Assembly (NCBI RefSeq): GCF_006345805.1 | Contig: NC_043011.1 | Coordinates: forward strand, 43,474,464-43,538,463 | Length of the DNA stretch: 64,000 nucleotides | Direction: 5' to 3' | DNA from: Octopus sinensis | Taxonomy: Eukaryota | In this document: in pieces, positions 6,649 to 45,815 of the stretch | How the letters are laid out: the number at the start of each line of letters is the position of its first letter | How positions within the stretch are numbered: position 1 is the first letter of the stretch | Translations under genes and position numbers: made by a program | Notes under the pieces: generated by a model | What the model was told of the DNA's origin: nothing | The model's database searches: none | What the model saw: only the letters and a program-made list of their open reading frames with translations

Positions 6649-6748
6649 NNNNNNNNNNNNNNNNNNNNNNNNNNNNNNNNNNNNNNNNNNNNNNNNNNNN
6701 NNNNNNNNNNNNNNNNNNNNNNNNNNNNNNNNNNNNNNNNNNNNNNNN
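6649..6748. other. Assembly gap (100 N)
   Basis: Run of n. Confidence 1.
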
Positions 6749-12436: not shown

Positions 12437-12916
12437 CTTTTACTCTTTTTGTTCTTTTACTTGTTTCAGTCATTTGACTGCGGCCATGCTGGAGCACCGC
12501 CTTTAGTCGAGCAAATCGACCCCAGAACTTATTCTTTGTAAGACTAGTACTTATTCTATCGGTCTCTTTTTGTCGAACCGCTAAGTTACGGGGACATAAA
12601 CACACCAGCCAGCATCGGTTGTCAAGTGATGTTGGGGTGACAAACACAGACACACAAACATACACACACACACACACACACACACACCACACACACACAT
12701 ATATATATATATAATATATATATATAATATATATATATATATACATATATACGGCGGGCTTCTTTCAGTGTCTGTCTACCAAATCCACTCACAAGGCTTT
12801 GGTCGGCCCGAGGCTATAGTAGAAGACACTTACCCAAGGTGCTACGCGGTGGGACTGAACCCGGAACCACGTGGTTGGTAAGCAAACTACTTACCACACA
12901 GCCACTCTTACGCCTA
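12437..12916 (-). mobile_element. SINE family B
   Basis: Full-length copy. Confidence 0.85.
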
Positions 12917-13620
12917 TCTATCTATTTATTCATCTATCACTATCTCTCTAACTCTCTCGTGCTTTCTTGTCTATCGTTTCCCGTTTTACTATTGACCTAA
13001 CAATGGACACTCTCAGCCTCACCATATTATGTGATTATACTTGCTTTCATATTTTTATTTCATAGCCTCCTACTTCTGTCCCTTTAGTAACTCTCCTCTA
13101 TTTCATCTCCTTTAATCCTATCTGTTGAAGCCTTAACTTCCTCTTGTTATTCTCTCAGTATGTGGATAACCAAGGAAAAGCTCTCTTCACTAACAATGTT
13201 TATTACATGCAACCAGGTGTAACATTTGAAATATTTCATTGACATAATGTAATAATAGTAACATGCTATTGTACCACGGAAATTTGATGAACTAGCTCAC
13301 TTGAAAATCAGATGACTTCTCAGCGAACATCATGTGTGAAGATTTAAATTTCGATCAATAATCAGTAAGGGACTAAATCATTTTAGAATTGCTTTATTCT
13401 ATTATAGGTAGTTTTCTAGCGCTGTTCGGTTAAACACCTACACACACACATACATACGCATGCATATATATATTCAGTGACAATTATAATTCTCTTTTTT
13501 TTTTGGTGAAACATTGCAAACTGTTATTTATATTAATTTTATATATACACATTAGCGAATCGCTAAACTATCCAATAATTTGGATGACGAAAATATAAAT
13601 ATAAACAGTAATACAGAACA

Positions 13621-13689
13621 ATCGAGCGGTCTTAGCTGATGAGGCAACAGATATTGCCGAAACTGACGTCAGTATTAAGAATTCTCGAT
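13621..13689 (+). ncRNA. Type I hammerhead ribozyme, canonical core
   Basis: atcgag-cgg-tcttag CTGATGA GGCAA(cagata)TTGCC GAAA CTG(acgt)CAG TA| ttaaga-att-ctcgat. All core nucleotides and three stems are present; predicted cleavage after A13674. Confidence 0.88.
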
Positions 13690-13800
13690 CGGCACTTTTT
13701 GGAAGATTATGGTCCCTGTTAGTGAATATGATTTCATTAATGTGCGTTTACTACAGTATTAGAACGGTTTAGCTCTTATTTCTAGCAATGTAGGTGTTAG

Positions 13801-14035
<235 letters not shown>

Positions 14036-14106
14036 TTTACTTACCGATGTGTCTAATTGTGAACGTATTTAACTATTTTTCTTTTATATGTCTCTCTCTT
14101 TTCCAG

Positions 14107-14390
14107 TTTTGCTGCCAACCGAGTTTGATCCTAAACTACACACTATCGAAATTACCTGCCTTCCAGCTGAGTGAAGACAACACAAGCTTCACTGGAGATA
14201 GTCACCTGAGATGCGAACTACCACAATACATATATATGAGCTGTATCATTAGCTTCATTTGCGTGTCTATATTTCTGCGACTCTCGGCCTTGCTCAAACT
14301 TTTCATGATGTTAGCAATGGCCACAGTGTGCATTGTCCTAATGGAATACACGCATAGACCTCTTTTCCAGCAGTTTGACTATTTGCATCA
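14107..14390 (+). CDS. ADCY1: Adenylyl cyclase exon: extracellular loop plus two M2 transmembrane helices (FCCQ...CELPQYIYMSCIISFICVSIFLRLSALLKLFMML...FDYLH)
   Basis: Polypyrimidine tract + ttccag acceptor; CA|GTAAGT donor (phase 2). The C-x-x-P-x-Y and FLRLS..LK pattern is typical of the AC M2 region. Confidence 0.9.
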
Positions 14391-14996: not shown

Positions 14997-15406
14997 TTTA
15001 CTCTTTACTCTTTTACTTGTTTCAGTCATTTGACTGCAGCCATGCTGGAGCACCGCCTTTAGTCGATCAAATCGACCCCGGGACTTATTCTTTGTAAGCC
15101 CAGTACTTATTCTATCGGTCTGTTTTGCCGAACCGCTAAGTGACGGGGACGTAAACACACCACCATCGGTTGTCAAGCAATGTTAGGGGGACAAACACAG
15201 ACACACAAACACATGCACATACACATACATACATATACATATACGACAGGCTTCTTTCAGTTTCCGTCTACCAAATCCACTCACAAGGCGTTGGTCGGCC
15301 CGGGGCTACAGCAGAAGACACTTGCCCAAGATGCCACGCAGTGGGACTGAACCCGGAACCATGTGGTTGGTTAGCAAGCTACTTACCACACAGCCACTCC
15401 TGCGCC
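14997..15406 (-). mobile_element. SINE family B
   Basis: Full-length copy. Confidence 0.85.
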
Positions 15407-15722
15407 AATCATCATAAAAGAAATTTTTTTTCAGCATGGTAACAACAGTTAATTTACCTTTAGAAATCCAATATATCACAAACTTTTTAACCAACCTAAA
15501 ATTTGCTGTGAATTTATTGAAAGGTGGGTGAAAGTTGCGAAAACGGCAACAGTGGGTGGTACCGTTCTGAGGTAGACCTGTGAGTCGGAGAAAGAGGATT
15601 GGAGGGGGTACTTGCCCTTGGTGTCCAAGGAGATCTTGGACAGTGAGGTTACTCGATTATCCCTAGAGTTTCTCCTGTTTCAGGATGACCACATCACCAT
15701 CATTTTTTTAAACCTTTAAATA

Positions 15723-20696: not shown

Positions 20697-21120
<424 letters not shown>

Positions 21121-21223
21121 TTTATAAATTTAACCTTTAATGGTATTTTTTAATATGCTGGCCATTGATAAAATGTTTTTGGGAAAAAATTTTATCCAAC
21201 ATTAGTTGTTATATATATATATA

Positions 21224-42635: not shown

Positions 42636-42755
42636 TATGTATGATTATAATAACAAGCACACCTTAATAGTGGATCGCATGTGTGTTTGTGCTTTTCGAA
42701 CGAACTATAATTCTTTACTCCCTAATTATTTCTCATTTTATTTCCTCTTTTACAG

Positions 42756-45700
42756 GTCACAGAAGAAGTATACATGGCCCTTAAAGATGTTTATGACTTC
42801 AAATGTCGCGGTCGGATAACAGTCAAAGGTAAAGGTGACATGGTTACCTATTTCGTGATGGGACTTAAAGGATCTGCTTCGAAGTATAGTCCCTGTAGCA
42901 CTGCAGAAAGCTTATCCAAATCTAGATCCCCGTCAAGAGATTTCAAGGAGAACGCGCCACTTGTACCACAAAGTCTCAGTGTTAGCAAAGACCTCGACCG
43001 ACAAGGGTCTCAAAAATCACAAGGAAAATCTCAATCCGTTTACGGTTCAATTAATATTGAACGAAAACCAAGCTTAGATTCTCTAAGGGGTCCGAACGGT
43101 ACTCCTACGAGCAGCCTGAATAAGAAAAGAAAAAATAGCACTGAGAGTCCAAGAGATTCGTCCGTTCGTAATCCATTGCGGAAACTGAGTAGTTCGTCTT
43201 TGACGAGTTGTATAACCGCTGATGTGTCTTACGGTTGCGTCGATTCTCCTGAACTACCAACAGTGCATTATATGAACGTTAAGATGCAGAACAACGGCAA
43301 TGCAAATATAGACAATGTTCATAGTCCAACAATTCAAAACGAAATGTTTGACCAACTTAAATCTAATACAGAACCAGAACTGGTCGAACGATCAGTGCAG
43401 CATCGAAGCTGTCCGCGACAAAATTTGTCTCCTGAAAGTGCAAAGAGCAGCACCAGTAAATCAGCGCCGCCACATCCAAGAGACAAAGTGTCAAAGATAC
43501 CATCTCCCTCCAGATCCTCTAATATGCCACAAGCAACATCATTGCCTGCTGTAACAGGATCGTCAGCCATTCGGAAATGTCTTCGTACGTCGACATCACC
43601 AACTCAGACGGAAGACTATTACGAAACAGGACCAATATTAGAGGAAATACCAGAAAGCGAAATTTTGGCAATGAATTGTATGTTAAAGGAACTGGGAGAG
43701 GTCGTAGATGAGACACAGAACGGTAGAGACAATAAAAGAAAGCAATCTCAACGTTCATTAGCGAAAAATAATAAACAATCTGGCGGTCACCTCCAAAGTC
43801 CTCAAAGTCCTGAATATGACAAAAATACAAGGAAACAACAGATCCCATCTGGCGCCAAATCCCCTCCAGCAAGACTGGATAAAAACACAGTGACTCCGCA
43901 GCCGATGTCATTGGATTCCATACCGTTGATACAAAAACCGAAACCACTGATATGTGATAGTCGTCGAACATCCTCAACAAGATCCAAATTAGCACCTTCT
44001 AATTTACCTAAAGCTTCGTCCATTCTTGCGAGTATTGACGGTAAAAATATGTCTATATTACCGGCTGCAGTTGTAAAAGTAGATAACGAAGAAAACCAAA
44101 AGATTAGCCTAATGCGTTCCCCGTCAGAGAAGACACGGGGGAAACCAGAATCCAATGGTCCTTCAGATAAAAGAAGAAAGTCTGATGGTACCATTCCGAG
44201 TTTGAACACTGCTGATAGCAATGTAAAAAAGATTCCGTCTGTAGGAGTTTGTAACCCAGTGGTTGTTCAGTCCCAGACAGAACCATGTTTTCTAAATACA
44301 ACTTCAGACGATGAATTAGAATCTGTCTCTTCCAACCAGTCTTCAGTTGTACTACTGAAACCAATAGAACTGAAGGTCAAATCTGGTATTAGACAACCAT
44401 TTACACGACAGGTTTCGTGCCCTGAAACTCCCCCTACGTCTGTAAGGAATGCAAGGGTAGATAACTCCGTCTGTCATTCTAAATCAAGTGATACACTCAG
44501 TAGCTGCCCTTATTCTTCACCATCGACACCAAAGTTCCCTATCCGCTTACACAGTGACAATACTCAACTGAATCGCTTGTTGCACGACCTCGAGCGAGAT
44601 GTTAATGATGATGATGACGGTGATGATGACGATGAAGAACATCACACTGAAAATCCAGTCAAAAAAGAACCAGTTCCATCTGAAGATTTAAAGCAACGCA
44701 AATTAAGAGCTCCTACAGGAATACCGAAGCTGTGTGTTACTCCGACTGTTGCAAAAGTCACTTCTCCATTGAAGCCAGCCACTGCTGTTGTGGCCCCAAT
44801 AGGACAGAAATCCTCTTACAACAGGAGCAACATATCTAGTAAACCCCCTGTAGGAGTAACTAACATGAGAATGCCGGGACCGGCAAATGATCGGAACAAG
44901 GCTTGTGTAAACGGTAGGAGCGGAAACTTTGGTGCAAAGCCGAGAGTACTGCTAGAACCAGTAAAGCATTCACGGTTGCCGACTGCTGTGGTCAGTAATA
45001 TAAAGAAAAAACGTCGGGAGAACTCTGTGGAAGAAAGTGATGAGGAACGAGTGGGTGTTTCTGTTAATCCTCAGAAGACCAAAACATCTTTCGCATGGCA
45101 ACCCAGGCACCGTTCACCTCCCACAGTGAGCTCAAACGCTAAACAACGCCCTTCTGGTGGGGCTGATACAGCTGGAGCAGGTGCTAGCGGTTCTGCTAAT
45201 GGTGCTGGTGGTGGAGGGGCAATTTCTCGTGTCGGTGCTGAAACAAGCACTGGTGTCACTAACAATAACAACAATAACAACAATAATATTAATCATTGCA
45301 GCAATACCAACAATACCAACAACAACAATAGCCTCCAGCAACGGATCGCGGTGAACCCGTTTCAAGTGAAACGAAGGCCCATATTCAGTATGCCTCCACG
45401 ATATTGCCGTAGCTTAGATTACATCCCCAGCGACAAGGAAGATCACGTGTCGTCTAACGCTTCCTCTGCGACCGGAAGTCCTCATATAAAACACACTTAT
45501 TTAATACCATATTTCGGTGGTGGTCGCAAACCCATGGCCATCGACAATATCAGCATATCGTCGTTTGCAAGCAGCAGTGAGATGTCGAAAAGTGACCCGA
45601 CTCTTAATTTCGACTCCGCTTCAACAGCCTATGAGTCTGAATACGACAACTACCGACCCGGTCTGGTCAGCGATGAGGAGTTCTTTGTCTCTGATGCCAT

Positions 45701-45815
45701 GAGTGACGTAGATTTGTTCGATGACATCAATATAGAGAACGTAACAGTCAGTGACAGCTACAGCCTTAACATACCACTTCCGCTTCCGACTCACAAAAAG
45801 ATAACTAACGTTTGA
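42756..45815 (+). CDS. ADCY1: Adenylyl cyclase terminal exon: end of C2a plus ~985-aa C-terminal tail (1019 aa)
   Basis: tttcctcttttacag acceptor, then VTEEVYMALKDVYDFKCRGRITVKGKGDMVTYFV, open to TGA at 45813-45815. The ORF-track Met at 42774 is internal. Confidence 0.95.
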   Translation, partial: VTEEVYMALKDVYDFKCRGRITVKGKGDMVTYFVMGLKGSASKYSPCSTAESLSKSRSPSRDFKENAPLVPQSLSVSKDLDRQGSQKSQGKSQSVYGSINIERKPSLDSLRGPNGTPTSSLNKKRKNSTESPRDSSVRNPLRKLSSSSLTSCITADVSYGCVDSPELPTVHYMNVKMQNNGNANIDNVHSPTIQNEMFDQLKSNTEPELVERSVQHRSCPRQNLSPESAKSSTSKSAPPHPRDKVSKIPSPSRSSNMPQATSLPAVTGSSAIRKCLRTSTSPTQTEDYYETGPILEEIPESEILAMNCMLKELGEVVDETQNGRDNKRKQSQRSLAKNNKQSGGHLQSPQSPEYDKNTRKQQIPSGAKSPPARLDKNTVTPQPMSLDSIPLIQKPKPLICDSRRTSSTRSKLAPSNLPKASSILASIDGKNMSILPAAVVKVDNEENQKISLMRSPSEKTRGKPESNGPSDKRRKSDGTIPSLNTADSNVKKIPSVGVCNPVVVQSQTEPCFLNTTSDDELESVSSNQSSVVLLKPIELKVKSGIRQPFTRQVSCPETPPTSVRNARVDNSVCHSKSSDTLSSCPYSSPSTPKFPIRLHSDNTQLNRLLHDLERDVNDDDDGDDDDEEHHTENPVKKEPVPSEDLKQRKLRAPTGIPKLCVTPTVAKVTSPLKPATAVVAPIGQKSSYNRSNISSKPPVGVTNMRMPGPANDRNKACVNGRSGNFGAKPRVLLEPVKHSRLPTAVVSNIKKKRRENSVEESDEERVGVSVNPQKTKTSFAWQPRHRSPPTVSSNAKQRPSGGADTAGAGASGSANGAGGGGAISRVGAETSTGVTNNNNNNNNNINHCSNTNNTNNNNSLQQRIAVNPFQVKRRPIFSMPPRYCRSLDYIPSDKEDHVSSNASSATGSPHIKHTYLIPYFGGGRKPMAIDNISISSFASSSEMSKSDPTLNFDSASTAYESEYDNYRPGLVSDEEFFVSDAMSDVDLFDDINIENVTVSDSYSLNIPLPLPTHKKITNV

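Follow-up and report, generated by a model that had tools for sequence, protein, structure and literature searches.

Does the hammerhead ribozyme motif in an intron of an octopus adenylate cyclase gene serve that gene, or did it arrive there as part of a mobile element? We addressed this question in a window of 64,000 nt (64 kb) from Octopus sinensis contig NC_043011.1, to which all positions below refer. A sequence-only reading of 13621–13689 had described an intact, sense-strand type I hammerhead about 430 nt upstream of a cyclase exon, and had suggested that it might cut the pre-mRNA co-transcriptionally in competition with splicing, or equally be a recent passenger from a Penelope-like element (PLE). 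Cyclases of the AC1/rutabaga class are linked to learning. A regulatory role, if true, would tie a retroelement-derived ribozyme to this learning-linked class in cephalopods; as a passenger, the insertion itself would matter little, and the find would add an octopus family to the metazoan non-LTR retrozymes.

A type I hammerhead motif at 13621–13689

The following elements were located in the motif.

13621–13689 (+): type I hammerhead ribozyme motif, core bases all intact
13621–13626 paired with 13684–13689 (+): distal stem I, 6 bp
Between distal and proximal stem I (+): 3 × 3 internal loop of stem I
13630–13635 paired with 13675–13680 (+): proximal stem I, 6 bp, with a G-U pair adjoining the core
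13636–13642 (+): core segment CUGAUGA (C3–A9), its first four bases predicted to pair with 13669–13672 in the monomer (inactive fold)
13643–13647 paired with 13654–13658 (+): stem II, 5 bp, with a 6-nt loop ending in A (13653)
13659–13662 (+): core segment GAAA
13662–13673 (+): stem III, a perfect palindrome of 12 nt that is predicted to form the helix joining two copies in a double hammerhead
13672–13674 (+): GUA triplet, with predicted cleavage at 13674/13675

The perfect core, the bipartite stem I, stem II with its 6-nt loop and the GUA triplet of the sequence-only reading each lie where it had placed them, and its 4-bp stem III with an ACGU loop is correct if A15.1–U16.1 is counted. The conserved core (CUGANGA, GAAA, UH) is present in the correct order, all three helices can pair and stem I is open-ended, as in type I. 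The predicted cleavage at 13674/13675 follows established hammerhead numbering.

A motif descriptor returned no match in 200 block-shuffled 64-kb windows searched on both strands; on the real window, it returned 13621–13689 and one other motif. Across 47 copies of the repeat family described below, standard pairs occupy 89% of the hammerhead stem cells. Two-sided changes occur at 8 of 22 pairs, all 8 in stem I, and give modest support to the hammerhead fold, slid controls yielding similar counts. An Rfam search, which had been proposed as a check, gave no hammerhead match at gathering score over the window, and none of the six matches at E ≤ 10 within 13400–13900 was a hammerhead. Rfam hammerhead models are built on particular families and miss others. 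The miss argues that no curated model is matched; it does not argue against the hammerhead fold. The best Rfam match over the motif, snR64 (E = 0.75; 18.4 bits against a gathering score of 38), was rejected as chance.

A chance match to the hammerhead consensus, or a snoRNA-like sequence, would agree with the Rfam result and with snR64 heading the local matches, but the shuffled windows never yielded the motif, which is moreover the common state of a large family whose stem I changes on both sides. This explanation is already effectively refuted, and we regard 13621–13689 as confirmed, at the level of sequence, as a real type I hammerhead motif.

The host cyclase gene and its introns

14107–14390 (+): host exon, adenylate cyclase type 1-like, second membrane region, residues ~493–587 of protein P0002

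The downstream exon is real: 14107–14390 is 100% identical to P0002, whose source name is 'adenylate cyclase type 1-like [Octopus vulgaris]', and its acceptor (14106/14107) lies 432 nt after the cleavage site on the same strand, as claimed. P0002 has seven further + strand exons in the window and five in the 60 kb upstream; with exons on this strand on both sides, the hammerhead is both sense and intronic, as the earlier reading had supposed. The exon also matches adenylyl cyclases 5 and 8 in the PDB, and AC5 and AC8 are the best solved relatives. The AC1/rutabaga label comes from the source's name for the protein. The exon for P0002 residues ~463–492 was not found in the window or in the 10 kb before it, and a 100-N assembly gap at 6649–6748 may contain it. 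The last coding exon (42750–45812, +) encodes ~1,020 aa, comprising the end of the catalytic domain and a long low-complexity tail with no Pfam match; the Argonauta protein P0003 is 74% identical over this exon. The long tail presumably resembles that of Drosophila rutabaga. Two copies of a ~450-bp interspersed repeat (12439–12917 and ~15030–15410), which we take to be SINE-like, lie on either side of the exon region; this repeat is common and was seen in several other loci.

The second motif returned by the descriptor, another type I hammerhead at 20931–20991 (+), lies within 20785–21132, two introns downstream within this gene. Its repeat family is a second, younger one with 1,926 candidates, the best of the scored copies being 93–95% identical. 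The copy in the window, which has (TA)n at its boundaries, carries 87-nt inverted arms (92% complementary). Of 14 other loci from this second family, 9 yielded the motif with the descriptor. By the same descriptor, the 60 kb upstream contain no hammerhead motif and the window contains two, both sense, an orientation that chance would give one time in four.

The motif lies in a dispersed ~356-bp repeat

The hammerhead is embedded in a repeat copy with the following parts.

13472–13798 (+): 327-bp monomer, nearly complete, of a hammerhead-bearing repeat (~356 bp, dispersed), with a single hammerhead and microsatellites on either side
13472–13547 (+): homology to the fixed 3′ terminus of the family, placed at the 5′ side in the manner of a partial tandem
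13801–14036 (no strand): (AT)n/(AGAT)n/(AGAC)n microsatellite, which cuts off the element's 3′ side

This is the sole copy in the window. Genome-wide, a 221-nt query gave 780 first-look candidates, 40 of which were scored and showed 77–88% identity (window excluded), and a 176-nt query taken from the 3′ half, which lacks the hammerhead, gave 1,803 first-look candidates. One family 17-mer has 155 exact matches in the genome, its reversed control none. The 17-mer is exact in 6/27, 4/36 and 6/32 sampled sites, and scaling by these fractions puts the repeat at ~700–1,400 genome sites, so that the copy-number check proposed by the earlier reading returned many dispersed copies.

The unit measures 335–357 bp in seven tandem loci, has a GC content of 37% and shows no ORF of at least 150 aa. 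In 78 non-redundant loci, the 5′ starts of copies scatter over the unit and the 3′ ends gather at one place, this fixed end frequently continuing into (TA)n or similar repeats; an adjacent inverted piece accompanies 31 of the 78. Partial tandems are common, with a period equal to the unit and each 3′ end abutting the next 5′ end, and no long tandem arrays were seen among the loci examined. Two same-strand hammerhead regions are present only in L044 and L048, and in neither are both intact. Duplicates were removed before counting (11 loci for the structure count; 12 for the intactness, CpG, unit-length and conservation counts), and L057–L092, which comprise host upstream DNA and PLE loci, were also excluded from those counts. 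The two commonest stem III variants, in 15 and 7 of 56 rows, are both perfect palindromes. Subfamilies were noticed among L043, L044 and L045, and among L097, L098, L101, L113 and L122. In one, proximal stem I is compensated and the palindrome has a different centre; in the other, a U is added after A9 and the triplet is mostly GUC.

A description of the family was not found among the papers listed by literature searches on octopus or cephalopod hammerheads and retrozymes, and Repbase, Dfam or supplements may already name it; in the excerpted part of PMC8557442, cephalopods appear only in connection with Naiad elements.

A likely Penelope-type non-LTR retrozyme

The family has the sequence-level features by which non-LTR retrozymes are recognized: a non-coding unit within ~170–400 bp, a GC content below 45%, a type I hammerhead and a tandem arrangement, here in the form of partial tandems. 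Its insertions show the Penelope-type traits of 5′ truncation, adjacent inversion, partial tandem and a microsatellite-bounded fixed 3′ end. Partial tandems, inverted 5′-truncated copies and a bias towards microsatellites are described for PLEs (10.1101/2021.04.23.441226), 350–390-bp repeats with type I hammerheads for the non-LTR retrozymes of mussel (PMC7229834), and a 2026 preprint derives non-LTR retrozymes from PLEs (10.64898/2026.07.22.740005). The same preprint recognizes an active retrozyme copy by two consecutive units with intact hammerheads; at 13472–13798, the window holds one unit only. As judged from its sequence, the octopus family is likely a non-autonomous, Penelope-type non-LTR retrozyme, and Penelope-type insertion structures in a retrozyme would fit the proposed origin of retrozymes from PLEs.

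A search for an autonomous partner found no sense-linked RT/GIY-YIG frame in the flanks of 86 element-bearing loci; it involved pieces of two PLE families, the loci all came from best-scoring matches, and the flanks were mostly 1.5 kb, with up to 5 kb for 26 loci. The one candidate frame, in L039, L054 and L056, was rejected: it is antisense to the element and the arrangement is a nested insertion. The three loci are a single insertion (94–98% identical including flanks), other copies of this PLE stop matching before the retrozyme element, and only one of 27 other loci of the L039-type PLE (L077) has a piece of the element (47 bp). The frame itself (L039:2650–4580, +) is a broken Penelope-like RT and GIY-YIG-type frame from a family with 2,867 candidates, with the retrozyme antisense in its 3′ region. 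A further Penelope-like fragment (L035:7866–8726, +; Pfam GIY-YIG, E = 1.3e-4) lies more than 2 kb from the retrozyme copy. Two minimal hammerhead motifs without stem III, of pseudo-LTR type, were seen at L131:2253 (+) and at a second place, on the − strand.

The 356-bp unit could instead be a solo pseudo-LTR, that is, the terminal repeat of an autonomous Penelope-like RT and GIY-YIG element with a coding part that is rare, old or absent from the assembly. Tandem and inverted structures of Penelope type would be expected of such a unit, hammerheads do occur in pseudo-LTRs (PMC4209133), pseudo-LTRs are related to retrozymes (10.64898/2026.07.22.740005), and the extra base between A9 and stem II in one subfamily is a trait of pseudo-LTR hammerheads (PMC4209133). 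The tandem period, however, equals the unit, with the 3′ end joining the next 5′ end directly; no sense-linked RT frame was found in the searched flanks (mostly 1.5 kb) of 86 loci; and a 5′ flank is shared by only two pairs of loci, both short. We consider this origin quite unlikely.

Predicted folding and cleavage of the single copy

The first four bases of the core recur in the 5′ arm of stem III, so that the 3′ arm can pair with the core. In the monomer, this misfold is preferred by 4.4 kcal/mol in all five contexts folded, and the unconstrained fold of two copies is an exact double hammerhead (−50.5 kcal/mol, against −43.6 kcal/mol for two misfolded monomers). Core bases are paired in the best monomer fold of all 19 intact copies, and a clean double hammerhead forms in only 6 of the 19. 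Similar misfold gaps, of 2.4–6.8 kcal/mol against 4.7 kcal/mol for the motif at 13621–13689, were obtained for nine copies of the second repeat family, which argues that the folding model, which takes no account of tertiary contacts or Mg2+, disfavours hammerhead folds generally. With the 19 intact copies and the second family giving similar gaps, auto-inhibition of the monomer was dropped as a strong argument. Dimer-dependent cutting is described for metazoan type I hammerheads (PMC4209133; PMC7229834).

Three bases are needed for the known fast tertiary contact: the A at the 3′ end of loop II, a U at the start of loop 1 and a pyrimidine in extrahelical position (PMC2632901). The loop II A is present (13653; 46/47 copies), but the loop-1 U is replaced by A at 13681 (46/47 copies) and the pyrimidine by G at 13629 (40/47); a contact in shifted register via U13682 or U13630 is conceivable. 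A mussel retrozyme that also lacks most of the contact bases cut at ~0.1 per minute (PMC7229834). The distance of 432 nt corresponds by simple arithmetic to ~6–7 s at the mammalian elongation rate of PMC10919898, a rate that may not be that of octopus; for the CPEB3 ribozyme, the same source gives a distance of 9,931 nt to the following exon and a half-life of 2–3 min. Hammerhead-cut introns were still spliced in vivo, whereas a faster HDV ribozyme blocked splicing (cited second-hand from PMC2995048). On the loop bases, the folding model and the timing, rapid cleavage of the 13621–13689 monomer is unsupported and probably does not occur.

Decay of the family and conservation of the intronic copy

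Family copies diverge from the per-column majority by 9–21% depending on the region, CpG sites more so (23% against 11% elsewhere), and G12 is lost in 11 of 21 copies. Intactness was scored with a descriptor that demands the core and 4, 4 and 2 pairs in stems I, II and III, and that disallows an extra base after A9; rows with such a base also fail on other grounds when read by eye. The fraction of intact hammerheads depended on how loci were chosen: 0/20 (0/13 fully covered) by the 3′ half, 8/33 by likeness to the window copy and 10/28 for an intact core. Core and stem II are retained letter for letter in 55 copies. Per-site retention in the least biased set predicts this for ~5% of copies, so tens of such copies are expected without selection. 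The family is old and mostly decayed, and the window copy belongs to an intact minority about as large as neutral decay predicts.

The window copy itself differs from the family majority by 7.3% (24/327), with 3 of 69 hammerhead positions and 21 of 258 others affected (p = 0.21). A search of sequencing runs, which recovers near-identical sequence only, returned from run X8 an 828-nt contig over 12960–13691 with 23 different letters, pointing to a ~3%-diverged ortholog that also has this insertion. All 22 listed substitutions lie in ~620 flanking nt, outside the 69-nt hammerhead (p = 0.09, or 0.31 if one unlisted difference falls inside the hammerhead). In this sequence comparison, the direction is that which selection would give, yet it is not significant, and about half of the ortholog differences lie on the branch already chosen for intactness. 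Runs X1 and X3 gave near-identical pieces of the window allele, and run X7 covered only 13233–13431 and short repeat pieces. X8 is an RNA run by guess only; its contig reaches only 17 nt beyond the cleavage site, which is not enough to bridge it, and contigs cannot reveal RNA ends, strand or level. The gap in cover after 13691 proves nothing.

The interpretation given in the sequence-only reading is thus upheld in part. An origin as a Penelope-like passenger is favoured by the dispersed family, but 'recent' does not fit a copy that is 7.3% from the majority and common to a ~3%-diverged lineage. Many dispersed copies together with absence at the orthologous position had been named as evidence against domestication: the dispersed copies exist, and the X8 ortholog carries the insertion.

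Passenger or regulator?

Our preferred explanation, which we hold to be very probable, is that the hammerhead is part of a copy of a dispersed ~356-bp non-autonomous retroelement, and that its place in the cyclase intron is a neutral passenger insertion. Copy number, unit length, fixed 3′ and variable 5′ ends, tandems, inversions and decay are direct observations on the family, from which we infer how the element would work. Tandem copies would be transcribed together, and two hammerheads would pair through the palindromic stem III into a double hammerhead that excises a unit-length RNA, which may circularize. An RT/GIY-YIG enzyme of Penelope type, acting in trans, would then copy the RNA back into the genome at AT-rich microsatellites. 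A lone intronic copy would be transcribed passively with the cyclase pre-mRNA; it would have no second hammerhead for unit release or for pairing in cis, and its core would be mostly sequestered in the predicted fold. Lacking a cis partner and with its core sequestered, it would be a slow cutter, acting for the most part once the next exon has been made or the intron is gone, and slow cutting would have little effect on the cyclase mRNA.

The opposing view, that the retrozyme arrived in this way and is now kept for cutting the cyclase pre-mRNA and tuning its output, as the CPEB3 ribozyme does in mammals, draws on the sense orientation within a cyclase intron, on a core and stems that are intact here and not in most family copies, and on a ~3%-diverged ortholog with no listed change in the hammerhead. 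The X8 contig, from a guessed RNA run, is a weak hint that the intron is transcribed, and loop II is one base from the Schistosoma loop in PMC2632901. Against this stand conservation that is not significant (p = 0.21; p = 0.09–0.31) in a motif chosen for its intactness, and the 55 copies that keep core and stem II. A domesticated intronic ribozyme should also have few copies, and this family has ~700–1,400 sites. In place of the U and the pyrimidine that loop 1 supplies to the canonical contact, this copy has A and G; ~6–7 s to transcribe 432 nt is short beside the CPEB3 distance and half-life (PMC10919898); and introns cut by a hammerhead were still spliced in vivo, splicing being blocked by a faster HDV ribozyme (PMC2995048). 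We judge such a regulator quite unlikely. The fast co-transcriptional cutting in competition with splicing proposed by the sequence-only reading is not supported, given the many copies, the lack of significant excess conservation, the missing loop-1 bases, the predicted misfold of the monomer and only 432 nt to the 3′ splice site.

A conditional form of regulation can also be imagined, in which selection keeps the copy as a cutter of the AC1/rutabaga-like pre-mRNA: stem III would hold the core shut in the monomer, and a family transcript pairing with the palindrome would activate the copy in trans. If true, this would be an invertebrate counterpart of the CPEB3 ribozyme under the control of retroelement expression; we consider it very unlikely.

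Comparison with known systems

The octopus motif resembles the HDV-like ribozyme of CPEB3 (PMC10919898) and the RECK hammerhead (PMC6155905) in being a sense self-cleaving motif in a gene intron, its cleavage being predicted. Amniote intronic hammerheads such as that of RECK are of type I and thought to derive from retroelements (PMC6155905). The CPEB3 and RECK ribozymes have few copies and are conserved across mammals or amniotes (PMC10919898; PMC6155905); the octopus motif, in contrast, has about a thousand paralogs, retains the whole unit, shows no significant excess conservation and lies 432 nt rather than ~10 kb from the next exon.

Its architecture is close to that of Schistosoma Sm-alpha (PMC2632901; PMC6155905), with a 6-bp proximal stem I, an internal loop and a 6-nt loop II of the form C...A. 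It differs in the first base of the 3′ strand of the internal loop, which is A and not U, and in the last base of the 5′ strand, which is G and not a pyrimidine (PMC2632901), so that the reverse-Hoogsteen contact of Sm-alpha would be unavailable in the same register. With the hammerheads of Penelope pseudo-LTRs (PMC4209133), the family shares tandem and inverted structure, microsatellite-bounded ends, a palindromic stem III and, in one subfamily, the extra base after A9. Unlike the minimal pseudo-LTR hammerheads of the same source, it has a full stem III and an extended bipartite stem I, and no linked RT/GIY-YIG frame was found in the flanks searched.

The closest counterparts by description, rather than by sequence, are the retrozymes of Mytilus galloprovincialis (PMC7229834), which likewise occur in a mollusc, have a ~350-bp unit of low GC content and carry a type I hammerhead without most of the archetypal loop 1–loop 2 bases. 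In both cases PLEs co-exist with the family, and copies are dispersed monomers and short tandems. The octopus family, unlike that of Mytilus, looks old and decayed and consists mostly of monomers and partial tandems, and the 5′ arm of its stem III duplicates the first four bases of the core. At 4–5 bp (a 12–14-nt palindrome), this stem is also longer than the 1–2 bp usual in metazoan type I hammerheads. The satellite-2 hammerheads of amphibians and those of axolotl (PMC7229834; PMC4209133) similarly combine a palindromic stem III and loop 3 with a predicted weak monomer and an active double hammerhead. Their monomer is weak from too short a stem III, whereas the octopus monomer is predicted to be weak from its core out-competing the 5′ arm for the 3′ arm of stem III. 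A long palindromic stem III that repeats the first four bases of the core would thus form a latch, predicted to be off in the monomer and on in the dimer.
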